64,000 nt of DNA from a virus (taxonomy: Duplodnaviria > Heunggongvirae > Uroviricota > Caudoviricetes). The position numbers were made by a program, and so were the translations under genes. The stretch lies in the IMG/VR virus record IMGVR_UViG_3300013132_000019; one strand, written 5' to 3'. Under the pieces are notes generated by a model that worked only from the letters and a program-made list of their open reading frames with translations, was not told where the DNA came from and searched no databases. Positions 9-44,968 of this stretch are shown here, in pieces. Within the stretch, counting starts at the first letter, position 1; the number at the start of each line of letters is the position of its first letter.

Positions 9-824
9 TTAATCCACCAAATCTTGTGGAATTAATTTATTCAAATACTCATAATTCTCATTATCAGCAATTGCCAAACCTTTTAAATACTCAAGCAAAT
101 CAACATGATAACTGTCAACCTTCCTAACCTCATACACCAAATCCAACCTAGCCTTTAAATAATCAGTTATCTCATATCCCTCACTCTCATATATCTCATT
201 GATATAATCAGCATCAACAACATAATCATCACCAGTTATCTCCATCGCCAACTTCAAAGCCTCAGTACTACCACCTTCAGGCGAATACTCATTAACAACA
301 TCACCATCAATAATGGTATATTCACCAAGATTATATCCGAAATCCTCATCAGCATACTGAACAGTAAATACCAAATCAGGATATTTCTCACTCAATTTCA
401 TAATAGCGGGAAATGGTGTATTCCACGCACTCAAAAATTCACACTCATTATCATCAAGTCGTGTACCATCATAGGCACCCCACTTCGTACCCCAATTCTC
501 AATAGCCCAATCATACCAATTGTCACAACCAAATCGAGCAATGTACTCATCTTGCAACTCCTGTGTCAATGAAAAACTCTTTGAATCCCATGGCGATAAC
601 TCACCAGCCAATTCCTTACGCTCATACTCTGAAATCTCAACTAAACGCTCTTCCTCACTTACAATACGTACTGGCGACTTAACCTCACGCAACTCCTTCG
701 GCATTGGAAGAAAATTGTCAAAAGTAATATTATCATCACTGTCAAATAAGGAATCCATAACCTCCTTTACCTTAAGGTCATTATCCCCCACAATACTTAA
801 AATGTTCGTTACATGATTTGGCAT
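9..824 (-). CDS. hypothetical protein (271 aa), Trp-rich motif NWYDWAIENWGTKWGAYDG
   Basis: Complete ORF from the six-frame track. Acidic, with no motif I can assign to a family. Confidence 0.55.
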   Translation of the reverse strand: MPNHVTNILSIVGDNDLKVKEVMDSLFDSDDNITFDNFLPMPKELREVKSPVRIVSEEERLVEISEYERKELAGELSPWDSKSFSLTQELQDEYIARFGCDNWYDWAIENWGTKWGAYDGTRLDDNECEFLSAWNTPFPAIMKLSEKYPDLVFTVQYADEDFGYNLGEYTIIDGDVVNEYSPEGGSTEALKLAMEITGDDYVVDADYINEIYESEGYEITDYLKARLDLVYEVRKVDSYHVDLLEYLKGLAIADNENYEYLNKLIPQDLVD

Positions 825-9306: not shown

Positions 9307-9720
9307 TCAAAAATTTTTTTGTATCAATTCCATTGATTGGTATAATCCAGCTTCAAGAGCTTCTTCGTATGTCTCAAATTCCAATTCATCAAGAGTTTTA
9401 CCGTTAATGGTAACATAGTAATGTTGAAACCATCTGTTCGTATTATATTGGGAAATTGAACAGACGTGGACGCCATGTTCCTCTCTCAACCATTTTTGGA
9501 GTAAGGATTGAGTTGGTGCTGATATTTTTTCTTGGTCATTAATCCATCGAGAAAAAATCATTGCGTGTCGGCATGCTAATGTTTTTTGTTTAAATACACC
9601 ATCAAATGTACCGAAAGCATAATCGCTTAAATTACATTCGGGGTCAAAACCCTTCTCTTTAGCGAGCTTAGCCGTTTTGAACGATATAAGTTGTTCTTTC
9701 ATAATCTCTTTTTTATCCAA
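9307..9720 (-). CDS. hypothetical protein (137 aa)
   Basis: ORF. Confidence 0.5.
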   Translation of the reverse strand: MDKKEIMKEQLISFKTAKLAKEKGFDPECNLSDYAFGTFDGVFKQKTLACRHAMIFSRWINDQEKISAPTQSLLQKWLREEHGVHVCSISQYNTNRWFQHYYVTINGKTLDELEFETYEEALEAGLYQSMELIQKNF

Positions 9721-10328
9721 TTTAACACAAATTCAGCACATTTGTTGCTGTTAGGTTGAACAATTCGTTCAGGTTTACAATGTGAATCGTTAACAATGTC
9801 ATGCAACATCTGTTCGACCTCTTCTCTTGTATACAATTTCGCTTCAATCGGATGAATGGTGATTTCGTGGCGTGGGTTGACTTTAAGTTCAAGTTCATAT
9901 TTAGGAACTGTCACAATATACTCCACATCAACTTCATCAACACCACCCTTTCTACAATATTCTTTGATGAATGATTTTGGAATCAATGCGCACCCTTGTC
10001 CGTATTTATCAGAAGCAGAATGCCATAATTTATCATCAGTGGTTGCTATGATTTTATGTCTCCAATCGTTGTTTACAGCGTCTTTTTCAGCTTGATAAAT
10101 GCCTACCGATTGACCTATTCCACCTGATATGTAATACCAATCGCCTTCCTTTATCTCTGAATCATCTATGATGTAGAGGTTTTGATTTTGAAGAGACTCT
10201 TCTATTGTGGGAACTTCTCCATAAAAAATACCCTTACGTTCGTTATACTTACACAAAGCAATCTGTGATGCTTTATTCGTAGGTAGCATCACTACTTTAC
10301 ATCGTTTTGTTTCCATTGTTTTTAACAT
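9699..10328 (-). CDS. hypothetical protein (209 aa)
   Basis: ORF. Confidence 0.5.
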   Translation of the reverse strand: MLKTMETKRCKVVMLPTNKASQIALCKYNERKGIFYGEVPTIEESLQNQNLYIIDDSEIKEGDWYYISGGIGQSVGIYQAEKDAVNNDWRHKIIATTDDKLWHSASDKYGQGCALIPKSFIKEYCRKGGVDEVDVEYIVTVPKYELELKVNPRHEITIHPIEAKLYTREEVEQMLHDIVNDSHCKPERIVQPNSNKCAEFVLNWIKKRL

Positions 10329-10849
10329 TCTAAAAGTTTCTCCAAATATACGAATAATTCTTGATATCTTTCAAGATATAATCGTTCTTTTACTTTCGGA
10401 TATTCTTTTTTGTACTTATTGAACATTGATGAGTTTGTTAATAGTGAATATTTAACATTAGCTATTATATCACACAACTTAACAAATACCGCCAATTCAT
10501 TTTCTTTAAGTTCGTTAAAGTATTTTTCTGAATGACGTTCATCACGATTCTTACCTTTTTCTTCAGTACAACAGTAGATTATATCAGCAACGCCATCACC
10601 AACCTTATGTTTAATATCGTTGTAGGTTACTCTGGCGTCTTCGATAAGGTCATGACCTATGGCACCGCAAAGCACCTTAATCTGTTCATCGCGATTAAAA
10701 CCAACTTCATTATAGAATTTTTTGACTTGGTTAACTACCAAATCTAGATGGAATGAATATGGATGAATGTCACCATATTTTTGGTTGCAAACAACGTCAT
10801 GTTGATTCACTGCAAACTCTCTAAATTTTTCAAAATCGTTATAGTTCAT
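10322..10849 (-). CDS. HD-domain hydrolase of RelA/SpoT type, a candidate small alarmone ((p)ppGpp) hydrolase (175 aa)
   Basis: HPYSFHLDLV...GAIGHDLIEDARVTYNDI matches the SpoT/Mesh1 HD signature (H...HD..ED). The size fits a stand-alone small alarmone hydrolase. Confidence 0.5.
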   Translation of the reverse strand: MNYNDFEKFREFAVNQHDVVCNQKYGDIHPYSFHLDLVVNQVKKFYNEVGFNRDEQIKVLCGAIGHDLIEDARVTYNDIKHKVGDGVADIIYCCTEEKGKNRDERHSEKYFNELKENELAVFVKLCDIIANVKYSLLTNSSMFNKYKKEYPKVKERLYLERYQELFVYLEKLLEC

Positions 10850-11228
10850 CGTTAACCCAACCTTTTTTTTGTAATTTAATTAAAAACTGTCTAAGTAATT
10901 GTCTATCCTCTGTTAAGTCAATTTCACCATCCAAATCATCAAACGCTAATGGCTCATTATTTATTATTCTGATGAACCAATTCTCGTTATCTGCTATGTG
11001 TATTACTTTGGAATCTTTCACTCTCTTGTTACAATACTGTAATGACGGCATTATTAATTCATCGTAATCGTTTTCCAATACCTCAAACTCAAACAAACAA
11101 TTATCGTTTTCAAAAGTACATTTTCTTGAAAATGTCAAATCTTCATCATTAATTAGTAATGGCTCATTTTTCTCTGTTTGGTCTTCTCTTACATACCAAA
11201 TACCATTAACTTGTATTCTATCTTCCAT
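10839..11228 (-). CDS. hypothetical protein (129 aa)
   Basis: ORF. Confidence 0.5.
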   Translation of the reverse strand: MEDRIQVNGIWYVREDQTEKNEPLLINDEDLTFSRKCTFENDNCLFEFEVLENDYDELIMPSLQYCNKRVKDSKVIHIADNENWFIRIINNEPLAFDDLDGEIDLTEDRQLLRQFLIKLQKKGWVNDEL

Positions 11229-11947
11229 TATTGTTTTGGTATTAAATTATTAAAATATTCTCGTTCTTGGGTAAAAACTGGTGGTGCTATACTAACCCAT
11301 CGACTTCTCGTTGACCCATTTTTATCGTAGTTTTCTTTAACGATTAATCGACCTCTTTTAAGTTTTGGGTCAAAATCATTCCAATTAACGCCCTTTTGAA
11401 AACACATTTCTTGCATTTGATTGGTGTTTTTACCATTAAGTTCTTTATGACTGTATAAAGATTGTGCAACTGACGAGATACTATTTCTAACAGTATCTTG
11501 TTGTCTCCAAATCATGTAATTCTCAACTTCAACTGCTGTCGGAATGGTAAATACGCGACTATCAAACATTGCCAATTTTTTTGGTCTAAGTTGGTTAAAC
11601 TTAGCTGTTGCCAAACTAGCTGAAATACTCGCCATTTTTTGAACATTACCATCAAACCAAGCTGAGGTTGTTAGTTCATTGAAGTCAGTTAAAAGAATTG
11701 AAATCTCATCACTTTGAACAAATGCAAATTTGGCACCTTGAATATTTTCACATAGGTACTTTGCGGTTTCATCCATATCATTCACCAATTTCCAATCAAA
11801 TGGTCTTTCAAGACCTCTAGTGTATGTGTGAAAAGCTTTTCCGTCAATGCGTATTATCGTATAAGTCCTTCTAGGTAGAAAGGTTCTTGTTCTATTCTCA
11901 TAGAATTCCTTCATACGGTCACCCAATGAATCTTTTTTATTTCCCAT
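11228..11947 (-). CDS. Thg1-like protein: tRNA-His guanylyltransferase family 3'-5' nucleotidyltransferase (239 aa)
   Basis: RIDGKAFHTYT and QSDEISILL align with the Thg1/TLP motifs RIDGRNFHKF and QSDEYSF. The length is right for a Thg1-like protein. Confidence 0.6.
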   Translation of the reverse strand: MGNKKDSLGDRMKEFYENRTRTFLPRRTYTIIRIDGKAFHTYTRGLERPFDWKLVNDMDETAKYLCENIQGAKFAFVQSDEISILLTDFNELTTSAWFDGNVQKMASISASLATAKFNQLRPKKLAMFDSRVFTIPTAVEVENYMIWRQQDTVRNSISSVAQSLYSHKELNGKNTNQMQEMCFQKGVNWNDFDPKLKRGRLIVKENYDKNGSTRSRWVSIAPPVFTQEREYFNNLIPKQ

Positions 11948-11973
11948 TATTGTTTTTTTTTTGGTTTATGATA

Positions 11974-11981
11974 CAAATATA
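11974..11981 (-). promoter_or_regulatory. -7 promoter box TATATTTG, 26 nt upstream of the Thg1-like ATG
   Basis: gatacaaatatatgaa on the plus strand, followed by an A-rich leader. Confidence 0.5.
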
Positions 11982-12002
11982 TGAATTATTAATGATATAA
12001 AC

Positions 12003-12036
12003 AAAAAAAGGTGAGAAATATTTCTCACCTTTTTAG
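12003..12036 (-). terminator. rho-independent terminator (AAAAAGGTGAGAAAT-ATTTCTCACCTTTTTTT)
   Basis: A 13-bp stem plus a T-run, read on the minus strand immediately after the stop of 12059..13453. Confidence 0.6.
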
Positions 12037-12058
12037 AATTACTAACTAACTATTTTGA

Positions 12059-13453
12059 TTATTTTGTTTTCGGAATCATTGTTTTTGCAAATTCCGCACC
12101 TAATAGGTCTGTTAGTATGCCGTTATTACCTTTACCACTTGAACCAGCAACATACACTTCAGGTAGATTAAGTTTTGCCAACTCAGCAGCAACACCGATT
12201 GCTGTTTCTTTTTGAATTTGGGCTTTTTCTTGTGGTGTAAGTCCAGCACTAACCAATCTAGCGTTCTGATACGATTCAGCATCGGCTTTAACTTTTTGTG
12301 CTTTAGCTTCAAGTTCGGCAGTCTTAAGAGCAATTTCAGCCAATTCACGTTTAGATTCCTCTTGCTTAACTTTGGTTTCAATTGCGATAAGTGTTTTAAC
12401 CTGCTCTCGTTCTTGTGCTACACGTTCAGCAGCTTTATCACGCTCACCTTCTGCAAGAATCTTTTGTTGTGCAATTTTTGCGGCTTCAACAGCTTCCATT
12501 TCAATTCTCTTCTGAGAGGCAATGTCTCTTTGTTTTTCAAGACGTTTTTGGAATGCTTCTTCAAGTACCAATTGGTCAACGATTACTTGTGAAACGATAA
12601 CGTTATTCTTGGTAATATCGTGTGGGATTCTTGTTGGAAATCCATCGGTACCGATTCGTTTTTCAACCTCATAGCGTGTTGATATTTCACGGATTTTTCG
12701 TTCACCATCTTCTTGAATACCAGTATTAACATATGTGGTATCAAAATATTCTTTCTTTTCAACTGAGAACCCACCATTCTTTAACTGGTCATCCAAAGTT
12801 TGTCTGAAATCTGATGCGGCACCAGAGATATAATCTTGGGCTGCAAACATATAGCCAGTATTAATTACTTGTTCACGAACTGTTGGCACCAATGTATTGT
12901 TAACAAAGTTCTGTGGGTGTCTGAACTCTTCAGCCAAAACCATAAAACTTTCTGGGTCTGAAGGTATTTGAACTCGTACAGATACCTTTACAGCAGCTTT
13001 TACTTGGTCAATAAATCTAATTGGAATACCACCTTTAATAATACCTTCAATACCCTCAGTTGGGTCACCTTCGTCAATAACTTTTACGTCAACGAATTTC
13101 TCCCATTCTTGAATCCTAGAAAATGGAATCTTGAATACATATCCAGATTTTGTTGTTACAGCACTCTTAGTACCGAATGGTGATACAACATAATACTGAT
13201 GGCCTGGTGTGGCATAGAATAAAAAGCTTGGTAATACAATAAGCAATGCGCCAACGCCTAATAGAATCGTTCTAGGTTTCTTTGTCCACATGGTTAAGAA
13301 TGTTGGTGATGCTGGTAGTTCTTCAGTGACATTATCACCCCATCGGTTTTTACCTTTTTTTGTTTCAGGTTGAAGTCTCAGTGTGGGATGCATCACTGAC
13401 ATCGCAATAGCGAACGCAACCATAATAAATCCCAAAATTGTTAATAGAATCAT
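12059..13453 (-). CDS. membrane-anchored protein with an SPFH/band-7-like region and a long C-terminal coiled coil (464 aa)
   Basis: N-terminal TM segment and a second hydrophobic segment, then an E/K/A/Q-rich heptad region (EAVEAAKIAQQKILAEGERDKAAER...). Confidence 0.45.
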   Translation of the reverse strand: MILLTILGFIMVAFAIAMSVMHPTLRLQPETKKGKNRWGDNVTEELPASPTFLTMWTKKPRTILLGVGALLIVLPSFLFYATPGHQYYVVSPFGTKSAVTTKSGYVFKIPFSRIQEWEKFVDVKVIDEGDPTEGIEGIIKGGIPIRFIDQVKAAVKVSVRVQIPSDPESFMVLAEEFRHPQNFVNNTLVPTVREQVINTGYMFAAQDYISGAASDFRQTLDDQLKNGGFSVEKKEYFDTTYVNTGIQEDGERKIREISTRYEVEKRIGTDGFPTRIPHDITKNNVIVSQVIVDQLVLEEAFQKRLEKQRDIASQKRIEMEAVEAAKIAQQKILAEGERDKAAERVAQEREQVKTLIAIETKVKQEESKRELAEIALKTAELEAKAQKVKADAESYQNARLVSAGLTPQEKAQIQKETAIGVAAELAKLNLPEVYVAGSSGKGNNGILTDLLGAEFAKTMIPKTK

Positions 13454-13527
13454 TTTTCTTTTTTTTTAGTTAATAATTAATTTTAGTTAGTAATTTATAT
13501 TTCGGATACAAATATATGAATTATATT

Positions 13528-13980
13528 TTAATCATCCAAGTTTTTTTCTTCTTTCACGTCAGAAGTTTCCAACCAGAAGTCAGTGAATTGTTCTTTAATC
13601 CAATCAGCCATATCATAATGCTGATTATATGACACGCTATGTGATGTGTCCCATTTTGTTTGATAAACATCACCAAAATCAGCCGTATCTATTGTTGGTG
13701 GGTTCAATGTTTTTTGTTCCCACTTAACCGCATGAATTGAATCAGAATTACGATGTTCAAAAAACGCAACATTCAATTGTCTGCTATAATCTTTAGACTT
13801 AAGTGATAAGACATAACCTTGTTCTCTACAGTTATGCCAACGAGCGACTTTGATTTCAGCGCGATAAACATGTCTTTCAGAATCCCAAGATTCTTCAATA
13901 TCAAACCAACTCAATAGAGCCAACACAGCTTTTGCTGATGGATGCGCACCATCATTCATGTAATCTTTAATTGTTACCAT
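13528..13980 (-). CDS. hypothetical protein (150 aa)
   Basis: ORF with a promoter box at 13509-13516. Confidence 0.5.
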   Translation of the reverse strand: MVTIKDYMNDGAHPSAKAVLALLSWFDIEESWDSERHVYRAEIKVARWHNCREQGYVLSLKSKDYSRQLNVAFFEHRNSDSIHAVKWEQKTLNPPTIDTADFGDVYQTKWDTSHSVSYNQHYDMADWIKEQFTDFWLETSDVKEEKNLDD

Positions 13981-14249: not shown

Positions 14250-14687
14250 TTAATCTAAACCATCAAAATCCATATCATAATTAACAATTTCAATATAATT
14301 ATCAATATTCAACTGATTTTGATTACATAAATCAATGATTTTTTGAATTAATGTTTCAATCTTAGCTTCAACACTGATTTTATTTTTGGTGTAGTCAATC
14401 AATTCAATTAGAATTGCTAAAACGTTTTCAATATTATCATCAGACTTTAGTTCTATGGATTCTTCAAATGTTGAATCTTCAGTTGTATCATATAATTGAA
14501 CTACAACATAACCTTCATTGTCAGTATCATCCGTTTCAATTTGTACCCAACATGCTTTGCTACCGACAAAGATTTCATAATTGATAGTATCGGTTTCGCC
14601 ACCATGAATAACATAATTAATCCGTTGGTTCTTTAACAGATTAACAATTTCTGATTCAACATTATTTGAAATTTCTCTACTTGTCAT
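14250..14687 (-). CDS. hypothetical acidic protein (145 aa)
   Basis: ORF with a promoter box at 14713-14720. Confidence 0.5.
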   Translation of the reverse strand: MTSREISNNVESEIVNLLKNQRINYVIHGGETDTINYEIFVGSKACWVQIETDDTDNEGYVVVQLYDTTEDSTFEESIELKSDDNIENVLAILIELIDYTKNKISVEAKIETLIQKIIDLCNQNQLNIDNYIEIVNYDMDFDGLD

Positions 14688-18305: not shown

Positions 18306-18776
18306 TTAAAGGTTTAAATGTTTAATAGCGTTTTTTAGGTACATATCTATATTTTTTCTACCAACAGGATTCTGCGAATGTACAACAAATTCTGGCAACT
18401 TCAAATTATTTTCTTCACAATAATTCACCAACCATTTAGCACAATCTAAACCAGTTTCTTCAACGCCTAATTGCTCTGAAGAAAAACTTTCCCAATCATC
18501 AAAATCGATTTGATAATGGTCAGTTGACAAATCATGGTCAAAAGATATTAAATCTGGAAAATCATTATTTTTAATGTATTCCACAAATTCCAAATAAGAC
18601 CTAACTAAAATCCAATTATCCTCCAAATATAGATGTTTACTTTCATTTGGTACCAAATGAAAGGCACCAATAGGTTCACGTATATCATCTAAAAATAATT
18701 TCCTCATCGTTTTCGTTTGGTTTTTGGTTCGTGAGTCAAAATCATTGACAGTACGCCAGACGCTGTTATTGTACAT
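18306..18776 (-). CDS. hypothetical protein (156 aa; the start may be the internal Met at 18707)
   Basis: The long ORF overlaps its upstream neighbour by 73 nt. The internal MRKLFLDD start removes most of that overlap. Confidence 0.45.
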   Translation of the reverse strand: MYNNSVWRTVNDFDSRTKNQTKTMRKLFLDDIREPIGAFHLVPNESKHLYLEDNWILVRSYLEFVEYIKNNDFPDLISFDHDLSTDHYQIDFDDWESFSSEQLGVEETGLDCAKWLVNYCEENNLKLPEFVVHSQNPVGRKNIDMYLKNAIKHLNL

Positions 18777-22316: not shown

Positions 22317-22916
22317 TTAAATAGGTAATACAACGTTTTCTAACGCTTTTTTTGAAATGTGTGTGTATATTTCTGTAGTTTTTGATGATGAGTGCCCTGC
22401 TATCACTTGAATTGTCCGAAGGTTTGTTCCGTTCTCCAACAAATTAGTAAAACATGAATGTCTCAGGCTATGGAATGACTTATCATTATCAATATATTTT
22501 TTAAATATTCTTTGACAAGAACCTACTGAATATGCTAATGTGAGGATTGTTCTATGTTTAATATTTGTGATTGTTTCAATTTTTTGTTTTAGAACATCAC
22601 CGTCAATAACACGAGGTAGTTTCTTTTCTTTTTTAGGACGTTTGAAACTTACTTTATCATATTTTTTGTTCAAACCGTACTTATATAAGAACCTGATTGC
22701 GTTGATAACTTGGTTTTGTTGTGATATAGACGTGAATTTATAATTATCAATGAAATATTGGAAATGTTTTGAATTACAATGGATTATTTGTATATCGTTT
22801 AAACTATCTAAAAATTGCTTGATATAGCATAGATATATATCACTAGTTCTTTTCGAGTAATTCAAAAATATAAACTTTTCAGTGCAAATCTTTATAATTT
22901 TTTGGTTTTTAGCCAT
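22317..22916 (-). CDS. small tyrosine recombinase (phage integrase / XerC-XerD family), 199 aa
   Basis: C-terminal LRHSCFTNLLENGTNLRTIQVIAGHSSSKTTEIYTH matches the R..H..R...GH...T..Y catalytic signature. Confidence 0.65.
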   Translation of the reverse strand: MAKNQKIIKICTEKFIFLNYSKRTSDIYLCYIKQFLDSLNDIQIIHCNSKHFQYFIDNYKFTSISQQNQVINAIRFLYKYGLNKKYDKVSFKRPKKEKKLPRVIDGDVLKQKIETITNIKHRTILTLAYSVGSCQRIFKKYIDNDKSFHSLRHSCFTNLLENGTNLRTIQVIAGHSSSKTTEIYTHISKKALENVVLPI

Positions 22917-25564: not shown

Positions 25565-26611
25565 TTACAAAAAAACATTATCCGTTTTTTCAAAAAACCA
25601 CAATCTGGCTTTGGTTGATAATGCTGAACTAATGTCCTTTGGTTCAAAACCGTTGCCAGTTATTGTATCAAGTTCTTCTTTAACAACATCTTCAAATATC
25701 CAACGAAGATAATTACCAGTACTCTTTCGTGATATATCCATATGGTTTTCCCTAAGATAATCAAGCCCTTGATTTAACCTTGATTCAGTCAAAAAATTAT
25801 CAACCAGTGAATCTATATTGCTAACTCGTTCAATGTCAATTGGTACTTTGGTTTTGGTCTTACTGCTTTGGTGTTTCTCACCTTTAGATTTAAACCAAAA
25901 CCTAGAATCACCCCAACCTTCAGTAACACAAACAAATACCAAACCCTCACCAGTACCAGATACCCCAAAAGATTTACCAACTGGGCATTCATTCTCAACA
26001 CTATCAACGTAGTCAGAAATCAGTTCAGCCGATTCACTAACATTATTAAAATCAATGTCAATAACGAAAGTTGGGTAATCTAAAATGTTATATATCTTTT
26101 GCTCAGGAATTTTAATATTTTTTAATTCAGAGTCTTTCATCCATAAACCATCAATCTTAATCGCAAAAATAACAAACATTTTTTCAAGCTCGTTCAGGGC
26201 AACACCTTTTTGAATATTACCGCCACACCATTCACCATAGACTTGAATAATCTTATAATCAGAAACGCTACCGTTCCGTTTAATTAAATCGAATATTTTA
26301 TTAACATCGATGGTTGTAACAAATGTAGCAAACCCAGCATTATCTTTTAATGGCGTTATTATATTTGTTCTGGATTGAACTTGAGTTTTGATGTTACCAT
26401 GCTCATTTTTCAATCGAATTATTGACGCATTCGTACCATGTAATTTGATACTGCCACGAAATTTTAACGTTGGTAGAATGCCTTCAGTCTCATCATATAT
26501 TGGTTCACCACTCTCAGTTGTACCTCTAAATCTAATACGATGATTAACCTCCTTAATTACAGTTCTGAGCTGTTCAATTGAAGGGAATTTATAAACTTTT
26601 TCAGTCATCAT
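25565..26611 (-). CDS. RNA ligase, Rnl2 family (348 aa)
   Basis: Motif I KLHGTN corresponds to T4 Rnl2 KIHGTN. YGEWCGGNIQKG resembles Rnl2 FGEFAGPGIQK. Lys-rich motif V near KSKGEKHQSSK. Confidence 0.65.
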   Translation of the reverse strand: MMTEKVYKFPSIEQLRTVIKEVNHRIRFRGTTESGEPIYDETEGILPTLKFRGSIKLHGTNASIIRLKNEHGNIKTQVQSRTNIITPLKDNAGFATFVTTIDVNKIFDLIKRNGSVSDYKIIQVYGEWCGGNIQKGVALNELEKMFVIFAIKIDGLWMKDSELKNIKIPEQKIYNILDYPTFVIDIDFNNVSESAELISDYVDSVENECPVGKSFGVSGTGEGLVFVCVTEGWGDSRFWFKSKGEKHQSSKTKTKVPIDIERVSNIDSLVDNFLTESRLNQGLDYLRENHMDISRKSTGNYLRWIFEDVVKEELDTITGNGFEPKDISSALSTKARLWFFEKTDNVFL

Positions 26612-28876: not shown

Positions 28877-29749
28877 TTAACAAATTAATTCTTTAGATGT
28901 AATAGCTTTTAATTTTTTCAACACACCTTTCTCAATCTGTCTGATTCTCTCCCTTGTTAATGACATATCATCACACTCACTCACCTCTTTAAGTGTCATA
29001 GGTATGTTACCATCAAGACCATACCGTCTAACAATAATCGTCTTTTCGATTGGTTTCATGTTTTCCAATAAACCCATCAAATAATCACCATTATCCGAAT
29101 TATCCAAATAATCTTCTGGTGTCAATTCATCCGAATCAAATAATATATCATGATAAGTCGAGCTATCTTCATCATTACTAATTGGTGAATCCATGGAAGT
29201 GAAGCCAAGTTCAACCAAATCAATCATTATTTTTAGATTTTCAATTTCCTTATCTGTTGATGCGGACTCAATTAGGTCATATACCGTTACAGGTCTACCC
29301 AATTCCTGTTCCAAATCAGATAGTTGTCGTTTGACATTTCTAATATTATCAACCTTATTGATTGGTAATCTTACTGTTCTTGAATTATTAGATATGAATT
29401 GTCGTATATTACGAACAATCCAATATACCGCATAAGTAAAAAACTTATTACCCATCGTAGGGTCAAATTTTTCAGCAGCCTCAATCAAACCAATATTACC
29501 CTCATTAATCAAATCCTCAATGTAAACACCTTCGGTCATATATGATTTAGCCACAGTTATAACAAATCGTAGATTTCTACGTATTAACTCATTTTTAGCA
29601 TCTACATCACCAGCATATGCTTTATATGCACATTCAGCTTCAGCATCAGCACTTTCGAAAAGTTTAATGTTATATATATCTGAAAGATATTGTTTAAGTA
29701 CACCATCACGATTAGTGATGCGTTTTTCTGTTGTATACAGGTTCGCCAT
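28877..29749 (-). CDS. RNA polymerase sigma factor, sigma-70 family (290 aa)
   Basis: Region 2 NLRFVITVAKSY...DLINEGNIGLIEAAEKFDP...YAVYWIVRNI. Region 4 LTRERIRQIEKGVLKKLK. Confidence 0.75.
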   Translation of the reverse strand: MANLYTTEKRITNRDGVLKQYLSDIYNIKLFESADAEAECAYKAYAGDVDAKNELIRRNLRFVITVAKSYMTEGVYIEDLINEGNIGLIEAAEKFDPTMGNKFFTYAVYWIVRNIRQFISNNSRTVRLPINKVDNIRNVKRQLSDLEQELGRPVTVYDLIESASTDKEIENLKIMIDLVELGFTSMDSPISNDEDSSTYHDILFDSDELTPEDYLDNSDNGDYLMGLLENMKPIEKTIIVRRYGLDGNIPMTLKEVSECDDMSLTRERIRQIEKGVLKKLKAITSKELIC

Positions 29750-30181: not shown

Positions 30182-30679
30182 TTAACGTTTTAAGTTATGG
30201 AAGGTTTCCAAGAATATTTCTTTTGATTGTTTTTGTGTCCAACAATCAAAATTATCATTACCCAACATGACGCCATTGAACTCAATATTTAACATCTTTG
30301 AATCAACCTCTTTGACCGAGTTATTCAATGGGTACTCAAAACCATATTTTTCACTTATGGTTTTCATTAACCTATCCTCCATAACCTTATATTCTGGTAA
30401 TAGATTCTTCAATGGTGTTGGTATATCCATAAGATACGCCTCAGAAGCATCGTGCAACAAAGCTTCCAACGCATATTTAGGTTCAATAATCTGAGAACAT
30501 AAAACCGAATGTTGTGCAATACTGTAGAATCTTGGTAGATGACCGCCAAATCTACATTGCATACTCAATGAATGTGCAATATCCTCAATATCAATCATAT
30601 CGACATCAGTATCGATGAAATTGAAATATTTCCCAGATGATGTCCTAATTGAATTAGGTACTAATAATAGTTTGTTCAT
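30182..30679 (-). CDS. HD-domain phosphohydrolase (YfbR-like 5'-deoxynucleotidase type), 165 aa
   Basis: H...HSVL...LLHDASEAY spacing is typical of the HD domain. Confidence 0.55.
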   Translation of the reverse strand: MNKLLLVPNSIRTSSGKYFNFIDTDVDMIDIEDIAHSLSMQCRFGGHLPRFYSIAQHSVLCSQIIEPKYALEALLHDASEAYLMDIPTPLKNLLPEYKVMEDRLMKTISEKYGFEYPLNNSVKEVDSKMLNIEFNGVMLGNDNFDCWTQKQSKEIFLETFHNLKR

Positions 30680-31179
30680 TATTTATTTTTTGGTTTAATT
30701 ACTACTATATATTTATTACCTTCAAAATTAGGTACATTTTCAGCAATACCATACTCTTCAACCTGAACGAGCAAATCCAATAGTATTTTTTGACCCTGTT
30801 CTTGATAATTCATTTCCCGACCCTTAAAGGTTACATAGGCTTTAACTTTATGACCTTTTTCGAGAAACTTTATGACATGATTTAACTTAAATTTAAGGTC
30901 ATTCTCATCAGTATTTGGTGTATACCGCATTTCCTTTATAGGTTTAGGTTTACTCTTTGGTTTATTCTTTTCCTTATTATATTGGAATTTGCTGTAATCC
31001 ATAATCTTACAGATAACGGGTTTTGTACTATCACTCATAAGTACAAGGTCCATACCCATATCTTCAGCTAATTGCATTGCCGATTCAATTGTCATTATAC
31101 CATCTTTAGTACTATCAACATTGTCACCGACCAACCTAACGGTTTTAAATTTAATTTCTTCGTTTATCTTATTAGACAT
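30679..31179 (-). CDS. infC: translation initiation factor IF-3 homologue (166 aa)
   Basis: Aligns along its length with bacterial IF3: VRLVGDN...ESAMQLAEDMGMDLVLMS...KPVICKIMDYSKFQY...YTPNTDENDLKFKLNHVIKFLEKGHKVKAYVTFKGREM. Confidence 0.8.
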   Translation of the reverse strand: MSNKINEEIKFKTVRLVGDNVDSTKDGIMTIESAMQLAEDMGMDLVLMSDSTKPVICKIMDYSKFQYNKEKNKPKSKPKPIKEMRYTPNTDENDLKFKLNHVIKFLEKGHKVKAYVTFKGREMNYQEQGQKILLDLLVQVEEYGIAENVPNFEGNKYIVVIKPKNK

Positions 31180-32828: not shown

Positions 32829-33887
32829 TTATTTGTTATTTTGAATACGGCTTAAACTAATTCCGTAATCGTTTGCAAGTATCGCTTTACCAATTTCTGA
32901 CGCAACACTTATTGTCCTTAATTTATTATGCTTTACCACATTCAATGAATTTGAACCCATCACATACGTTAATGAAGATTTTTCAATTCTATCAACGGCA
33001 TTACCACTTAAAATCAAATGAGTTGTCACAGCGGATACGCTTTTCGCGCCCAATTCAATCATTTTGTCAGCGTTGGCACATAAGGTTCCAGCCGTATCAC
33101 ACATATCATCCAATAAGATTACATTTTTATCCTTAACATCACCAATTATTATAACCTCATCAACTTTATTGTCCTCAACTCTGTTCTTATGCGCGAATAC
33201 AAATGGTAAATTAACACCGTATTTATCCCTAATGCGATTCTGCATTTTAACAACACGTTTACCACCACCAGCATCAGTAGCAGCCAATACAACATCACCT
33301 AATCTGGCGTGTTCATTATGAATGAATTCAGTAAACAAATATTGACCCTTGATGTTTGTAACTGGAATATCAAAAAAACCTTCAATCTGGTCGGCATGTA
33401 ACTCCATCGTAATTATACCTGTTGCACCCAACATCTCTAATTTCTTAGCCAATACCTTAGCACCAATTGAACCTCTGTGTTGGTCTCTTTTATCTTGACG
33501 TGAGTATGGAAAATACGGTAATATCGGTATAATCTCATGCGCTGATGCTCGTCTTGCAGCATCAATGGCAAACTCCAACTTAATTATTTCATCAGAATTA
33601 ATCGGTGTTGTTAATAGATAAACCTTTTTACCTCGTATTGACTTATTAAAATCAACGTTCAATTCCCCATCAGAGAATTTTCTATTGGTCATTTCACCAA
33701 CAGAAATCGGTTCTGTGAAACCATTACCAGTAAAGTCAACAATTTCTCTCAATAGGTCAAGCCTACCATCGACAGAGAATATAATAGAATTAGTCTTTTC
33801 CATGTATTTTTTTAACAGTATATTTCCAACCAGAGTCCGAATTGACTTCGAATAATTGAGCCATCTTATTGGCTGATTCATAATCAT
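32829..33887 (-). CDS. prs: ribose-phosphate pyrophosphokinase (PRPP synthetase); the probable true start is the MEKTNSII Met at 33803
   Basis: FSDGELNV, PYFPYSRQDKR, ELHADQIEGFFDIPV and IIGDVKDKNVILLDDMCDTAGTL match Prs signatures (PRPP-binding loop DDM.DT.GT). The internal start removes the overlap with 33790..34002. Confidence 0.85.
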   Translation of the reverse strand: MIMNQPIRWLNYSKSIRTLVGNILLKKYMEKTNSIIFSVDGRLDLLREIVDFTGNGFTEPISVGEMTNRKFSDGELNVDFNKSIRGKKVYLLTTPINSDEIIKLEFAIDAARRASAHEIIPILPYFPYSRQDKRDQHRGSIGAKVLAKKLEMLGATGIITMELHADQIEGFFDIPVTNIKGQYLFTEFIHNEHARLGDVVLAATDAGGGKRVVKMQNRIRDKYGVNLPFVFAHKNRVEDNKVDEVIIIGDVKDKNVILLDDMCDTAGTLCANADKMIELGAKSVSAVTTHLILSGNAVDRIEKSSLTYVMGSNSLNVVKHNKLRTISVASEIGKAILANDYGISLSRIQNNK

Positions 33888-35634: not shown

Positions 35635-37293
35635 TCATGACAGTTCAAACTCACTAACAACTAATTTAGCGTTTTCACGCACTTGTTCAAAAGTATAATT
35701 TTTAAGTATTTTACCATTTTCGAAAACTGGCACCAATTCATCGGTGGCTTCTTCAAAACCCTCATCATTTGATGTTAGGGTATAGTAAGAACCGTCTTGG
35801 TCTTTAACCAACTTCAATTGTCCAGACTTAGATTTCTTAAACGATTGTACTTCGTTGAAGTTTTCGTCAATCTCGATAGGACTTTTTGCAACATCAATTT
35901 CCTTACCATCAATAATACTAAAACAACATTTCGTGGCGAAATTTTGAGTATCTCGGTCTATACCAGCTTGCAGCAGTTTACCACCCATCCCAAATACAAT
36001 ATTTTCCGCTGAAATTTTCCTTTCTTTCATCATTTCATATACACCAGCAATGCTATCAATATTAACACCATCCCCTTGAATTATTCGCACTTGTGGTGGT
36101 AACACCTTAAATCCTTTACTGTTTGTTGTATATCCGAAAGTTTCAAATAACGAATCGAACACCATAATCAATGTGTTAATTACATGACCACTATCAGGTC
36201 TTATAACCAATTGATTAGCTGGTTCATTTGGTCTACTCAAAATTTCAGCTTTTAGCTCTTTACCCCATAGATTCTTAACAGCATTCATAATACCAAAGGT
36301 ATCAGAGACACAAGCAACAATACCAGTTGGGTATTTTTCTAACACTCTTCGCATCATATCGACTTCACCTTCTTTACCAAGCAACGTCATAATAGAATGC
36401 TCTGTGGCTGGAACTGATTGCCCATAAACAGTATCCGTATCATAATACTCGCATATTAATCTAGATGCTGCCGTAGTATCTGAACCCCTAAAGTTAACAA
36501 GGTGTGCGGACCCACCAATTTCTGCTGACTGTACGCTTGAAACACCTCTAAAACCAAAGTCATTCAGTACATATTCCATTAAGAATTCTTTGGTTTCGGA
36601 ATCAAAATCCGTTGTTTCATCCCAAGCATTATTAACAATCTTTTTAACTTCCCTTGATAAAGTTGCGACTGTAATTGGATACCAAACCTGCAAAATCAAA
36701 GTCTCCAAGAAATTTGTTAACCATGAACATTTTGGGTCAGTATTCTCAATATATAAAAGCACATTCTTAACCCCAACAACTGAACCTTCGGGAACTGCCT
36801 TTATTTTAATTGGTAATCTACCACCATGATGTTCAACAATATAATCAAATTTGGTTCTATCAAAAACATCTTCTCTACCAAACACACCATGTACAGTACC
36901 CAAATAATCATAAGCCTCATCGACATCTTCTCTTGTTATCGCAACACCCTCAAGATATTGTTTCATAAACCATTGGAGTCCGTAGAATACCGTTTCATTG
37001 AATTTACCACCCCTTGATTCCAGATATGAACCCATTTTTGTCATACCATCTGGATAAAACTTATGGTGTGAATATTTATAAGCATCACCCAATAATACTA
37101 AATTATGTGGTTTATCTAAATATTTCTGTAACATGTCATTAAGTTCCAACATGTCACCATAATTACCTGATTTTAACGCTTGTTTAAGCTGTCTTTTAAT
37201 TTCTCTTTTTAAACTCATAATGTATTTTTTTTTAATTGTGAAATCTAGTTGATGTGAAAAACGCATCCAAAAATTTAATATGTTCTGGTACAA
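35635..37293 (-). CDS. nadV: nicotinamide phosphoribosyltransferase (NAMPT/NadV); the probable true start is MSLKRE at 37218
   Basis: Extensive identity with NAMPT: ETVFYGLQWFMKQYL, KIKAVPEGSVV, NTDPKCSWLTNFLETLILQVWYPITVAT, IRPDSGH, RIIQGDGV. Confidence 0.9.
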   Translation of the reverse strand: MYQNILNFWMRFSHQLDFTIKKKYIMSLKREIKRQLKQALKSGNYGDMLELNDMLQKYLDKPHNLVLLGDAYKYSHHKFYPDGMTKMGSYLESRGGKFNETVFYGLQWFMKQYLEGVAITREDVDEAYDYLGTVHGVFGREDVFDRTKFDYIVEHHGGRLPIKIKAVPEGSVVGVKNVLLYIENTDPKCSWLTNFLETLILQVWYPITVATLSREVKKIVNNAWDETTDFDSETKEFLMEYVLNDFGFRGVSSVQSAEIGGSAHLVNFRGSDTTAASRLICEYYDTDTVYGQSVPATEHSIMTLLGKEGEVDMMRRVLEKYPTGIVACVSDTFGIMNAVKNLWGKELKAEILSRPNEPANQLVIRPDSGHVINTLIMVFDSLFETFGYTTNSKGFKVLPPQVRIIQGDGVNIDSIAGVYEMMKERKISAENIVFGMGGKLLQAGIDRDTQNFATKCCFSIIDGKEIDVAKSPIEIDENFNEVQSFKKSKSGQLKLVKDQDGSYYTLTSNDEGFEEATDELVPVFENGKILKNYTFEQVRENAKLVVSEFELS

Positions 37294-38173
37294 TTATATC
37301 TCTACGATAATCATAAGTTAATTCATCGGTTGTGAACCATTTAACAGCATGAATATCGTCATTTGGTTTTGGTGTGCCGAATACATATTTGCATTTGAAT
37401 ACCGTGGTCATAATTCCATCCTCACACCCATTATATCTCCAATCGTCAACTTGACCACTGGTGACATATTCCATGTTACCAACTTCAATTTGACCAACCT
37501 CTTCAAACAATTCCCTTTTAGCCGCAGCTTCCCAATTACTATCTGTTCGGTCAACAAAACCACCCACCATTCGCCATTTGGTTTCGTTTGGTTTTTGCGC
37601 CAATAAGATTTTACCACCGCCTTCGGGGTTAATTTGATATGGTATAATGTCAACTGTAGGGTAAGTCACTGGATATCTATCATAAGTGGCATGAATCACG
37701 CCAGCCCTCCAATCCTCAGAAGCCCCAATCTCTTCAGAAATTAATTTCCTTGCTTGAGTACCTGAGTAAAATATATCAGTAATTAATTCTGTGGTGTCAA
37801 ATCTACCAGAATAATGACTTATAAATGAGTCTCTTGAACCATAAAGAAGGAACTTTTGATTACCGTATGGTTGTGTAACTAGATTGTCAAGTTGCTTACT
37901 CCAATCGGAATCACTTCGCATATCCTGTAATGGCAGTATTACAATATTAGGATATTCTTCTTGAATCATCAACTTCCTTGCAGCAAACGGTAATGGATTG
38001 CTTTTTGAACCAGATTTTCTAGGTACACCAAGAAAGATAACCACTTTTTTATGATGACTAACAACCTTATCAATTAAGGCTCTATGACCGTCATGAAGCT
38101 TCGCAACTTGAAATCTACCAACTAAAACGCCACAGGTATATTCTTCTGGATTGACTACAGTTTTTATTTGCAT
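37232..38173 (-). CDS. bifunctional NMN adenylyltransferase / Nudix hydrolase (NadM-Nudix, NatV-like), 313 aa
   Basis: N-terminal cytidylyltransferase motif GVLVGRFQVAKLHDGH. C-terminal Nudix box GGFVDRTDSNWEAAAKRELFEEVG. Confidence 0.8.
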   Translation of the reverse strand: MQIKTVVNPEEYTCGVLVGRFQVAKLHDGHRALIDKVVSHHKKVVIFLGVPRKSGSKSNPLPFAARKLMIQEEYPNIVILPLQDMRSDSDWSKQLDNLVTQPYGNQKFLLYGSRDSFISHYSGRFDTTELITDIFYSGTQARKLISEEIGASEDWRAGVIHATYDRYPVTYPTVDIIPYQINPEGGGKILLAQKPNETKWRMVGGFVDRTDSNWEAAAKRELFEEVGQIEVGNMEYVTSGQVDDWRYNGCEDGIMTTVFKCKYVFGTPKPNDDIHAVKWFTTDELTYDYRRDIIVPEHIKFLDAFFTSTRFHN

Positions 38174-39559: not shown

Positions 39560-40014
39560 ATTAAACTTTTAATAATTAAACTTAATTCCTTACCGTCATA
39601 TTGACCAGCATAATTCACTTTAAAATAATTCATTATTGCACCAATGTTTACGTTACCAGCACTTTCTTCAGATAACACAAATTCCTTTACTATTTCAATC
39701 AACTCAAAATTTGATAATTGTTTGGGTAGATATCCTTCCAAAACCGTAATTTCAAACTCATCATTAGTGGTCTCTTTAACGCCTTGAATCGATTTCTTAA
39801 CCAATGCAACAATATCATTATCTGATAATTCAACCTTACCCTTAGATGTTTGTTCATTACGTTCAATCTCACCTTTCAATACTCGAAGTACCCCCAACTT
39901 TTGAGATTCTTTGTTTTTCATGGCATTTTTTATATCACCATTAATTTTATTTTTTAATGTCATTTTAATATATTTTTTTTCTTTTTTGTGAATAATAATA
40001 GAACGATAACGCAA
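39556..40014 (-). CDS. yqeY: GatB/YqeY-domain protein (the probable start is MTLKNK at 39963)
   Basis: GVLRVLKGEIERNE and VLEGYLPKQLSNFELIEIVKEFV align with YqeY SVIRMLKAAIKN and ILESYLPEQLSEEEL. Confidence 0.65.
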   Translation of the reverse strand: MRYRSIIIHKKEKKYIKMTLKNKINGDIKNAMKNKESQKLGVLRVLKGEIERNEQTSKGKVELSDNDIVALVKKSIQGVKETTNDEFEITVLEGYLPKQLSNFELIEIVKEFVLSEESAGNVNIGAIMNYFKVNYAGQYDGKELSLIIKSLM

Positions 40015-44754: not shown

Positions 44755-44796
44755 AGAGCAAATATATAAATTATTTTATTAATAAACAAATTTTTG

Positions 44797-44871
44797 TTCC
44801 CCCAGCTGGACTCGAACCAGCACCCCTTAATTAAAAGTTAAGTAGTCTAAACCAATTGAACCTATGAGGGA
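44797..44871 (-). tRNA. tRNA-Lys (anticodon UUU)
   Basis: Hand fold. Acceptor TCCCTCA/TGGGGGA, anticodon arm CTTAA-CTTTTAA-TTAAG, T-arm CTGG-TTCGAGT-CCAG. Confidence 0.6.
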
Positions 44872-44879
44872 ATTTAAAA

Positions 44880-44953
44880 TGGAGCCGCATGAGAGAGTCG
44901 AACTCTCGCCTTCTGATTGGAAGTCAGATGTGCTGCCGTAACACCTATGCGGC
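44880..44953 (-). tRNA. tRNA-Gly (anticodon UCC), CCA encoded
   Basis: Acceptor GCCGCAT/ATGCGGC, anticodon arm TCTGA-CTTCCAA-TCAGA, T-arm GAGAG-TTCGACT-CTCTC, followed by TCCA. Confidence 0.6.
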
Positions 44954-44968
44954 AAAAAAAATCAACTG

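Follow-up and report, generated by a model that had tools for sequence, protein, structure and literature searches.

A bacterial-type Thg1-like protein gene in an uncultured large phage and its predicted role in tRNA 5'-end repair

The window, the whole 64,000-nucleotide stretch of viral DNA analysed here, encodes at 11228..11947 a protein that is a genuine member of the Thg1-like 3'-5' (reverse) polymerase family, in a large phage. The product is a bacterial-type Thg1-like protein (TLP) and not a eukaryotic-type Thg1, and it is an ordinary further member of a phage family that has already been described. Its probable role is that of a tRNA 5'-end repair enzyme which, encoded by a stand-alone accessory gene, would sustain a working pool of host and phage tRNAs. 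The TLP gene and its transcription unit lie on the minus strand of the window, as do the ligase, NTase, metallophosphoesterase, cREC and tRNA genes described below and the neighbour of the Rnl1 ligase.

Identity, active site and predicted fold of the TLP

The ORF is ATG-initiated and specifies 239 aa; the plus-strand frame of the same interval is broken by many stops. An earlier note on this DNA had read the product as Thg1-like from the motifs RIDG.xFH and QSDE.S. Both are present, as RIDGKAFH (residues 33-40) and QSDEIS (residues 78-83), and the assignment is borne out by every sequence and fold test. The PF04446 Thg1 profile matches with an E value of 8e-28 over profile positions 2-130 of 130, and the score of 97.4 bits is above the curated threshold of 29.2 bits. 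The PHROG family phrog_4717, 'tRNA-His guanylyltransferase', matches with an E value of 1.3e-89. The match is far above chance.

In PDB sequence searches, the crystal structure of the Bacillus thuringiensis TLP (BtTLP, 4kgk) aligns with residues 6-235, the full length of the phage protein, with an E value of 7.9e-71, whereas eukaryotic Thg1 and archaeal TLP structures are matched at about 1e-12; the yeast, Candida and human Thg1 proteins range from 1.7e-12 to 1.8e-7. The HINNLYN segment is a significant feature of eukaryotic Thg1, and the stretch of the phage TLP aligned opposite it reads RQQDTVRNSIS. The bacterial-type assignment is made because the protein is much closer to BtTLP than to Thg1 and lacks HINNLYN.

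Residues E12, R28, D30, S74, D75, E76, K99, R131 and R147 of BtTLP are important by mutagenesis or structure (Hyde et al., 2013; PMC3701042), and all are kept in the phage TLP. The catalytic acidic residues are all there in the alignment, as D35, D80 and E81 (D30, D75 and E76 in BtTLP; D29, D76 and E77 in hTHG1), and are invariant in 68 phage TLPs. Also invariant in the 68 is the activation-site serine S79, the equivalent of BtTLP S74, which contacts N7 of the activating NTP (PMC3701042). R33, K104 and R131, which bind the NTP triphosphate, and the anchor E17 are retained (R28, K99, R131 and E12 in BtTLP). Across the 68 sequences the key BtTLP-equivalent residues do not vary, except that one sequence is gapped at R131 and R147.

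The ATP-positioning lysine (BtTLP K43, ScThg1 K44) is not kept, and is R48 in this phage TLP. At the equivalent position, 44 of the 68 phage TLPs have R, 19 have K and five have some other residue. In BtTLP, the K43A substitution reduces adenylylation about 10-fold without affecting guanylylation (PMC3701042). The position is auxiliary: it modulates NTP use and is not a criterion of family membership. Since K43 is replaced by R48 here, and by R in most of the phage proteins, the activation chemistry or NTP preference of the phage TLP may differ from that of BtTLP.

Structure prediction is in agreement with the sequence matches. The AF2 model (pLDDT 76, pTM 0.70) gave 32 Foldseek matches in the PDB at E<=1e-3, every one of them a Thg1/TLP chain. 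The top matches are BtTLP 4kgm/4kgk, with E values of about 4e-22 and TM scores of 0.68-0.75.

The transcription unit of the TLP

The TLP gene heads its own four-gene operon, with its own promoter-like site. This site, a Bacteroidota-type motif (TTTG-N20-TATATTTG) at 11974..12005, stops 27 nt short of the TLP ATG on its upstream side. There are 20 such motifs in the window, against 4.6 expected, and 17 of them are on the coding strand. An intrinsic-terminator-like hairpin at 12005..12034, with a 13-bp stem and a T-run, sets the TLP unit apart from the upstream SPFH gene.

The next gene, p129 (10839..11228), is a 129-aa ORFan whose start codon shares 1 nt with the TLP stop codon. It matches no known family or structure, and just 14 homologues are present amongst 5.8 billion proteins, forming a family without a recognizable domain. 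It is overlapped by 11 nt by a 175-aa HD gene (10322..10849), ascribed with moderate confidence to a putative Mesh1/SpoT-type small alarmone hydrolase (SAH). The product carries HDLIED at residue 66 and matches phrog_990. In a PDB phmmer search it retrieved Lmo0812 (3.1e-8), Drosophila Mesh1 (7.4e-5), the SAH structures 6z3n/6z3o (5e-4 to 1.3e-3) and Rel hydrolase domains. The NCBIfam spoT_relA match (1.1e-4) is under its cut-off, and a Pfam search at 0.01 gave nothing. The final overlapping gene of the operon (9699..10328) encodes a 209-aa protein belonging to phrog_15656, a function-unknown family.

Other RNA-repair genes and tRNA genes in the window

The earlier note had taken these genes and the TLP together for a complete set that heals and seals tRNAs and repairs their ends. 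This was overstated, as the parts are dispersed, no Pnkp is found in the window and the TLP has no conserved partner. The repair components are spread over 52 kb, at distances of 7 to 51 kb from the TLP, and have their own promoter-like sites. The toolkit reading of the note is only partly supported, and the TLP is best seen as one element of a loose, dispersed RNA-repair repertoire and not of a dedicated cassette.

Two RNA ligases are present, in transcription units separate from that of the TLP. The Rnl2-family ligase at 25565..26611, 14 kb from the TLP, was correctly recognized before (PF09414, 6.8e-11; phrog_548, 5.6e-55; motif I KLHGTN). A second ligase, at 62744..63898 and 51 kb from the TLP, belongs to the Rnl1 (T4 RnlA) family (PF09511, 4.7e-12; motif I KLDG). 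It had been described as lying beside a kinase-like protein; the ligase stands, but its 229-aa neighbour (62036..62725) has no P-loop in a motif scan, and profile and PDB searches with it were empty. A Pnkp-type kinase/phosphatase (P-loop plus DxDxT HAD) was not found amongst about 60 Pfam-scanned ORFs of the window, and in a motif scan of all its minus-strand ORFs of at least 60 aa none joins a P-loop to the HAD motif.

Three Pol-beta-type nucleotidyltransferases (NTases) had been proposed, and two or three can be retained. The product of 54432..55577, situated between two tRNA clusters, is a weak member that narrowly passes the threshold (PF01909 NTP_transf_2, 1.3e-4; 22.8 bits against 21). 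That of 58477..59490 is a putative Pol-beta-like NTase with an FGDMDILV motif and a match to phrog_24943, for which nothing was found in Pfam or the PDB. The third, at 52548..53330, is of the DUF7277/DUF7275 type, and its N-terminus matches an AbiEii-type NTase below threshold. PDB sequence searches with these three proteins and the Rnl1 neighbour gave no usable match.

Calcineurin-like metallophosphoesterases, of which three to four had been counted, were verified by profile match at 43479..44060 and 55556..56305. As for the two HD hydrolases reported, the SpoT/Mesh1-type gene of the TLP operon is upheld, and the second (30182..30679) shows a weak YfbR-like match only. The alarmone-hydrolase nature of the operon gene had been missed, as had a cREC_REC (cyclic-phosphate-processing receiver) domain protein at 18306..18776 (PF20274, 1.2e-23). 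A role in healing RNA 2',3'-cyclic-phosphate ends has been predicted for cREC (PMC7824862), and this protein is a candidate enzyme for that step. Prs, NAMPT and NMNAT-Nudix genes are also present in the window, 21 to 26 kb from the TLP.

The window has 14 tRNA genes according to ARAGORN and 16 according to Rfam, fewer than the 'at least 17' counted before. They include clusters at 44796..45382 (Lys, Gly, Thr, Gln, Pro), 53811..54188 (Ala, Asp, Glu, Phe) and 57051..57713 (three Leu, Val, Cys), all with intact acceptor stems, in the last case as judged from the Rfam alignment. No tRNA-His occurs amongst the 16 tRNA-like genes of the window. That the phage's own tRNAs encoded here need no 5' editing is a point against a repair role.

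Gene context in other viral contigs also bears on the question of a module. Of 66 other viral loci, only four have a ligase within 10 kb of the TLP. When TLPs from viral contigs are collapsed at 70% identity, the most frequent neighbour family occurs in at most six of 32 lineages. Other viral contigs repeatedly carry HAD 'Swiss-army-knife' RNA-repair genes and YqeY genes in the vicinity of their TLPs. A syntenic relative, L090, keeps the p129 and SAH genes (89% identity) but is missing p150, SPFH and TLP, so that the TLP counts as an accessory gene of variable presence, and no partner gene is conserved with it. For the same reasons, there is no operonic evidence for cooperation between the TLP and the ligases.

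A functional link between the TLP and the SAH was considered, on the basis of their location in one operon of overlapping genes and because 10 other loci have an SAH no more than 10 kb from the TLP. It was downgraded, as L090 keeps p129 and SAH without the TLP and as the TLP of another contig, L004, which is 81% identical, sits in an unrelated gene context.

Predicted function

Templated 5'-end repair of truncated tRNAs is the primary activity of BtTLP, the closest relative to have been characterised (PMC3701042; PMC4820378). By homology, the phage TLP would be a palm-domain enzyme that uses two metal ions to add nucleotides 3'-5'. It would bind a tRNA that lacks one or a few nucleotides from the 5' strand of its acceptor stem, and would either activate the 5'-monophosphate with ATP or GTP or take a 5'-triphosphate directly. 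The missing positions would then be refilled, with the 3' strand of the acceptor stem as the Watson-Crick template, to give a chargeable tRNA. The enzyme would thus most likely maintain the host and phage tRNA pool during infection, and on balance we favour this role, exercised by a stand-alone accessory gene. The analysis shows family membership, an intact active site, the fold and the layout of the transcription unit; that tRNA 5' ends are the substrate, that the phage benefits and any cooperation with the ligases are inferred.

Most phage records annotate the homologues as tRNA-His guanylyltransferase. Under that name the enzyme would add G-1 to host tRNA-His, or to a phage-encoded one without G-1 or from which it has been lost, for charging by histidyl-tRNA synthetase, and BtTLP does slowly add G-1 to tRNA-His in vitro (PMC3701042). 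BtTLP favours truncated non-His tRNAs over tRNA-His without G-1 by orders of magnitude. The sole tRNA-His near a TLP in viral contigs (L066, 1423..1496) has an A73 discriminator, a eukaryote-like arrangement that would leave an encoded G-1 unpaired, but this observation is anecdotal, concerning one tRNA-His amongst 66 loci. G-1 addition is considered unlikely here, since the phage TLP is far nearer the repair-type BtTLP than eukaryotic Thg1, has RQQDTVRNSIS where eukaryotic Thg1 has HINNLYN, and is accompanied by no tRNA-His gene in the window. It also counts against this role that bacteria normally encode the G-1 of tRNA-His genomically. The many tRNA genes of the phage could instead point to editing of the 5' ends of its own mismatched tRNAs, as TLPs do in the mitochondria of Dictyostelium and Acanthamoeba; a D. 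discoideum mitochondrial tRNA was used as a substrate in PMC3701042. However, the ARAGORN and Rfam structures show only Watson-Crick or G-U pairs at acceptor-stem positions 1-3 in every standard tRNA of the window, and the acceptor stems of two tRNA-like genes bearing inserts are fully paired. Editing of phage tRNAs was rejected for the window on account of these intact stems, and is scarcely credible as the function of the TLP.

Other readings look beyond the tRNA 5' end. Of 66 viral loci, 19 have NAMPT no more than 5 kb from the TLP; PRPP synthetase and a Macro-like family are each as close in 16, and NADAR in 12. In Bacillus phage PK-3, Prs, NAMPT and TLP lie within 4 kb, and NAD-related genes are found in this window too. 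The TLP might then act on the 5' ends of non-tRNA RNAs or in NAD+/ADP-ribose counter-defence, for example by reactivating or rebuilding RNA 5' ends after cap-like or ADP-ribosyl modification. This association, apparent in raw counts, largely collapses when related lineages are removed: it derives mostly from one clade, with NAMPT in four and NADAR in six of the 32 lineages that remain after the 70% identity collapse. In addition, the NAD genes of the window are 21 kb or more from the TLP, and auxiliary genes cluster generally in large phages, so that we judge such a role improbable. Other SAHs remove pyrophosphate from 3'-CCA ends modified by toxSAS/CapRel-type toxins (Kurata et al., 2021). 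The TLP-p129-SAH operon might by analogy be a two-ended repair cassette for the tRNA acceptor arm, in which the TLP would restore the 5' strand, the SAH would strip the pyrophosphate from the 3'-CCA, and the Lys-to-Arg change would mark a phage-specific shift in activation. We regard this cassette as very improbable.

Distribution and significance

Known phage systems of this kind, with T4 Pnk+Rnl1 as the example, were said in the earlier note to lack a Thg1-like enzyme. That is true of T4, but the novelty it implies is not borne out. There are 162 GenBank phage records with a TLP homologue, mostly annotated as tRNA-His guanylyltransferase, a PHROG family exists, and metagenomic homologues number in the thousands. 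Iyer, Anantharaman, Krishnan, Burroughs and Aravind (2021; PMC7824862) described Thg1 in jumbo-phage RNA repair, alongside Rnl1 and Rnl2 ligases, RlaP NTases, CCA-adding enzymes and HD-alarmone phosphodiesterases, and independently assigned phage Thg1 to 5'-end restoration.

The TLP shares 50-54% identity with its best matches in GenBank phages, none of which reaches 60% at the amino acid level, and its nearest relatives are uncultured metagenomic contigs. A megablast search of 10000..13500 against GenBank phages gave no match, indicating that there is no close cultured relative. Host inference from TnpB led only to MAG contigs of Bacteroidales, Sphingobacteriales, Flammeovirgaceae and 'Saccharibacteria' (60-76% identity). 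Together with the enriched Bacteroidota-type promoter motif, this suggests that the host is probably a member of the Bacteroidota.

A literature search found no biochemical or other experimental study of a phage TLP. None of the published antiphage nucleases examined yields 5'-truncated tRNAs, which counts against the repair reading: the nick made by Retron Eco2 is in the 3' strand, and other nucleases cleave the anticodon, D or T loops. If a defence system that makes 5'-truncated tRNAs were found, TLPs would represent a new class of counter-defence enzyme. The locus offers a convenient test case, with its intact active site, presence/absence polymorphism relative to a syntenic relative and common K43R variant. 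The main value of the present analysis is a correct annotation, which adds a further divergent TLP to those of phages, here from a large phage that is uncultured.

Comparison with known systems

The closest parallel drawn here is with BtTLP (PDB 4KGK/4KGM; Hyde et al., 2013; PMC3701042), which is about the same length (245 aa against 239 aa) and is approximately 49% identical in a structural alignment over residues 6-235. The carboxylates, the NTP-binding Arg and Lys residues and the activation Ser are identical, and the predicted fold is alike. The phage TLP differs in having R48 for K43 and S159 for M158, and in being phage-encoded. The PHROG 4717 members of Xanthomonas phage XacN1 (ORF126), Bacillus phages PK-3 and PK16 and Staphylococcus phage PMBT8 are of the same family. 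Their carriers are likewise large tRNA-rich phages with RNA ligases and NAD-salvage genes, although most of the hosts listed differ from the probable Bacteroidota host here.

With the jumbo-phage repertoire of Iyer et al. (2021; PMC7824862), the window shares Rnl1, Rnl2, Pol-beta NTases, cREC, an HD-alarmone phosphodiesterase, many tRNAs and the sporadic Thg1, whereas PNK-HAD, RtcB and a recognizable class-II CCA-adding enzyme were not found in these 64 kb. An Rnl1-family ligase with its motif I lysine is shared with the T4 Pnkp and Rnl1 system. In contrast to T4, Pnkp was not detected in the window, and the TLP, which T4 itself lacks, is 51 kb from Rnl1. The T4 pathway mends breaks in the anticodon loop, whereas the TLP would target acceptor-stem 5' ends. 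Eukaryotic Thg1 (human 3OTB, yeast 5XOX, Candida 3WBZ) belongs to the same superfamily and has the same carboxylates and two-step chemistry, but is only about 20-25% identical to the phage TLP (E values of about 1e-12 to 1e-7), from which HINNLYN is absent. The phage TLP would be expected to be template-dependent rather than specific for the tRNA-His anticodon.

Identity of the Thg1-like protein

The ATG-initiated ORF at 11228..11947 (minus strand) encodes a 239-aa Thg1-like protein (TLP); the plus-strand reading of the same interval has many stops. Both motifs quoted in the earlier note are present (RIDGKAFH, residues 33-40; QSDEIS, residues 78-83), and its observation of a phage-encoded Thg1-like protein is confirmed by database comparison. 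The Thg1 profile, PF04446, is matched over its full length with 97.4 bits (threshold 29.2 bits; E=8e-28), accompanied by a weak Thg1C match; PHROG 4717 'tRNA-His guanylyltransferase' is matched at E=1.3e-89, and residues 6-235 align to the crystal structure of the Bacillus thuringiensis TLP (BtTLP, 4KGK) at E=7.9e-71. On these scores, the family match is evidently no chance resemblance. Eukaryotic Thg1 and archaeal TLP structures are matched at E values of only 1e-12 to 1e-7. Where eukaryotic Thg1 has its characteristic HINNLYN, the alignment shows RQQDTVRNSIS in the window TLP, which in this segment resembles BtTLP (RQQDASKNSIS) and lacks the eukaryotic feature. Judged by sequence, this is a protein of the bacterial-type, repair-type branch and, despite its database name, not a bona fide tRNA-His guanylyltransferase.

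In BtTLP, the metal-binding and catalytic carboxylates are D30, D75 and E76, the incoming NTP is contacted by R28, K99 and R131, with E12 anchoring the arginines, and the activation site comprises S74 and K43 (PMC3701042). BtTLP was aligned with 68 phage TLPs, drawn from the window, 64 IMG/VR loci, two Logan contigs and two GenBank phages. At the functional positions the window TLP carries E17, R33, D35, S79, D80, E81, K104, R131 and R148, including all the catalytic acidic residues on which the earlier note had made the assignment depend (D35, D80 and E81). These residues are invariant in the 68 phage TLPs, except in one sequence, which has gaps at R131 and R147. The sole departure among functionally tested residues is at the ATP-positioning K43, which corresponds to R48; Arg occupies this position in 44 of the 68 phage TLPs and Lys in 19. 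Since K43A in BtTLP lowers adenylylation about 10-fold and leaves guanylylation unaffected (PMC3701042), the position is a tuning rather than a defining one, though with Arg the choice of activator could be different. Ser replaces M158 of BtTLP in the window TLP. Structure prediction with AlphaFold2 from 24 homologues (pLDDT 76, pTM 0.70) gave a model with 32 significant PDB matches, all of them Thg1/TLP chains, the best being BtTLP (E ~4e-22, TM ~0.7).

Transcription unit and putative host

A 13-bp hairpin with a T-run (12034..12005, minus) lies between TLP and the upstream SPFH/Band-7 gene (12059..13453). Directly after it, and ending 27 nt before the TLP ATG, is the promoter-like motif TTTG-N20-TATATTTG (12005..11974, minus), which fits the Bacteroidota -33/-7 promoter consensus. 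The window contains 20 copies of the pattern TTTG-N17-21-TAnnTTTG where 4.6 would be expected, and none of 100 shuffles reached 20; the coding strand carries 17 of these copies, and several are immediately 5' of gene starts, including those of the Rnl1 and DUF7275 proteins (examples, all minus: 11974..12005, 53320..53350 and 63896..63925). Shine-Dalgarno sequences are absent at start codons such as that of TLP. Together, the promoter pattern and these starts point to a Bacteroidota host.

The next gene, for a 129-aa ORFan (p129; 10839..11228, minus), begins at the TLP stop, which it overlaps, and shares 11 nt with that of a 175-aa HD protein (10322..10849, minus); this in turn shares 7 nt with a 209-aa protein of no assigned function (9699..10328, minus). 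Because of the terminator-like hairpin and promoter-like motif upstream and the overlapping genes downstream, TLP is the first gene of a separate operon of four genes. An HDLIED motif is present in the HD protein, and its PDB matches (3e-8 to 1e-3) are Lmo0812, Drosophila Mesh1, small alarmone hydrolases and Rel hydrolase domains, which identifies it as a predicted SpoT/Mesh1-type small alarmone hydrolase (SAH).

Elsewhere on the minus strand are a sigma-70 family factor (28877..29749), translation initiation factor IF3 with both its domains (30679..31179) and, between them, a weak YfbR-like HD match (30182..30679). A short protein of 199 aa (22317..22916, minus) resembles tyrosine recombinases and combines a SAM-like domain with a C-terminal integrase domain; 9..824 (minus) encodes an Api92-like protein with a ferredoxin domain (DUF1281_C).

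RNA-repair genes and tRNAs

The earlier note had read TLP, ligases, nucleotidyltransferases (NTases), phosphoesterases and tRNAs as a complete tRNA healing, sealing and end-repair module. This is only partly supported: the components are spread over 52 kb, many with their own promoter-like sites, and no Pnkp-type kinase/phosphatase was found among the ~60 ORFs scanned or by a motif scan of the minus-strand ORFs of at least 60 aa. The genes are a repertoire rather than a module. The Rnl2-family ligase is secure (25565..26611; PF09414; phrog_548, 5.6e-55; motif I KLHGTN), as is the Rnl1-family ligase (62744..63898; PF09511, motif I KLDG), but the latter's supposed kinase-like neighbour is without a P-loop and has no profile or PDB match. 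Two calcineurin-like metallophosphoesterases (43479..44060 and 55556..56305) were recovered in place of three to four. The three proposed Pol-beta-type NTases are all weak or partial: that at 54432..55577 is just above the Pfam threshold, the putative NTase at 58477..59490 is called from a GDMD motif only, and the DUF7275/7277 protein (52548..53330) has an AbiEii NTase match below threshold. Two proteins can be added to the earlier list. One (18306..18776, minus; PF20274, 1.2e-23) has the cREC 'cyclic-phosphate processing receiver' domain, and proteins of its family are predicted to make way for ligases by clearing 2',3'-cyclic ends (PMC7824862); the other is YqeY-like (39556..40014, minus; 1.7e-23). 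Both families have been linked to RNA repair or tRNA metabolism.

ARAGORN finds 14 tRNAs and Rfam 16, rather than 'at least 17'. The putative NTase genes at 52548..53330 and 54432..55577 sit among the tRNA clusters (44796..57713), most of whose genes do not encode 3' CCA, tRNA-Gly alone showing TCCA; no class-II CCA-adding enzyme was matched by profile in the window. Two tRNA-like genes (48286..48388 and 48589..48719, minus) score 37.4 and 32.1 bits, above the Rfam tRNA threshold; their acceptor, D and T arms are intact, but the anticodon arms contain large inserts (33 nt in place of 15 and 69 in place of 11). The gene of 103 nt takes a cloverleaf fold that has a long variable arm, a 5-bp stem and an 8-nt 'anticodon' loop, and is called by ARAGORN solely with an intron at a non-canonical position. 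Possible identities for these genes are tRNAs with introns, tRNA-like RNAs and pseudogenes; close by (48180..48251) are fragments that resemble T arms. Three Leu-anticodon tRNAs (CAA, TAA and TAG; 57052..57129, 57140..57217 and 57473..57550, minus) are each just 78 nt long; their variable region is short where type-II tRNAs have a long arm, the D-loop is enlarged and the D-stem poorly paired; two are misfolded by ARAGORN. Within the tRNA/NTase region is a full-length TnpB/IS605 OrfB with a Cas12f-like TNB domain (50508..51689, minus). Among genomes, it is closest (60-76% aa) to MAG contigs that carry the labels Bacteroidales, Sphingobacteriales, Flammeovirgaceae and 'Saccharibacteria'; some of these contigs (109-185 kb) may be misbinned phage sequence.

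TLP neighbourhoods in other viruses

Sixty-four IMG/VR loci with 10-kb flanks and two annotated phages (66 loci) were searched with 19 window proteins. Within 10 kb of TLP, NAMPT was present in 21 loci, Rnl2 in two, Rnl1 in two and SAH in 12, two of these 12 being the same phage as the window. Unbiased clustering of every ORF within 5 kb gave NAMPT in 19 loci, PRPP synthetase and a Macro-like family in 16 each, a deoxyribosyltransferase-like family in 13, NADAR and YqeY in 12 each and the HAD 'Swiss-army-knife' RNA-repair domain in nine. One clade dominates these 5-kb counts; when TLPs were collapsed at 70% identity into 32 lineages, every neighbour family occurred in six or fewer. The window has its own minus-strand NAD+ salvage block (PRPP synthetase, 32829..33887; NAMPT, 35635..37293; NMNAT-like/Nudix fusion, 37232..38173), and in other viral contigs, chiefly of one clade, such genes often lie a few kb from TLP.

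A syntenic viral locus, L090 (60-89% aa identity over ~14 genes), has the order AAA, w14250, p129, SAH, its SAH being 89% identical to that of the window. Here the homologue of 14250..14687 is joined straight to the p129-SAH pair, and the intervening segment of p150 (13528..13980), SPFH/Band-7 and TLP is absent, a presence/absence polymorphism of ~3 kb (window 11228..13980 versus L090 5549..6928). Conversely, a TLP 81% identical to that of the window, in locus L004, has none of the window's genes around it. TLP is a mobile, variable accessory gene, and its adjacency to SAH is not conserved.

Substrate and role

Homology to BtTLP suggests that the phage protein would repair 5'-truncated tRNAs in a templated manner, this being the primary activity of BtTLP (PMC3701042; PMC4820378). 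The data do not support editing of phage-encoded tRNAs at their 5' ends: in the ARAGORN or Rfam structures every acceptor stem pairs fully, those of the two insert-bearing genes included. Addition of G-1 to tRNA-His has little support: tRNA-His is absent among the 14 (ARAGORN) to 16 (Rfam) tRNA-like genes of the window, and the sole example near a TLP in the 66 loci (L066, 1423..1496) has an encoded G at -1 with an A73 discriminator, a eukaryote-like arrangement, and an encoded CCA.

Some SAHs were shown to reverse tRNA CCA pyrophosphorylation (Kurata et al.), and PaSpo is a phage SAH that neutralises toxSAS. From these precedents, TLP and SAH might be imagined as a two-ended acceptor-arm repair cassette against toxSAS-type and as yet unnamed 5'-end attacks, but this is very improbable, because L090 keeps p129-SAH without TLP. 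Against the templated repair model, none of the defence tRNases in the papers compared would shorten tRNA 5' ends: retron Eco2 cuts the 3' strand of the acceptor stem, and the others cut anticodon, D or T loops.

Comparison with known systems

TLP homologues were found by tblastn in 162 GenBank phage records, mostly annotated already as tRNA-His guanylyltransferase, with hosts including Bacillus, Prevotella (Lak phages), Caulobacter, Mycobacterium, Xanthomonas, Erwinia and Vibrio. All are <60% identical to the window TLP, which by this measure is divergent. A metagenome protein search gave at least 8000 matches at E<=1e-10, including an identical protein on a 266-kb contig. No biochemical study of a phage TLP was found in the searchable literature. 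The concept put forward in the earlier note has already been published, since Iyer et al. (2021) describe Thg1 in jumbo-phage RNA repair: their repertoire comprises Rnl1/Rnl2/RtcB ligases, PNK-HAD, cREC, RlaP NTases and a CCA-adding enzyme, with 'the unusual 3'-5' polymerase Thg1 ... sporadically present' and an HD-alarmone phosphodiesterase listed separately (PMC7824862). Of this repertoire, Rnl1, Rnl2, cREC, a Thg1-type gene and an HD-alarmone gene are present in the window too.
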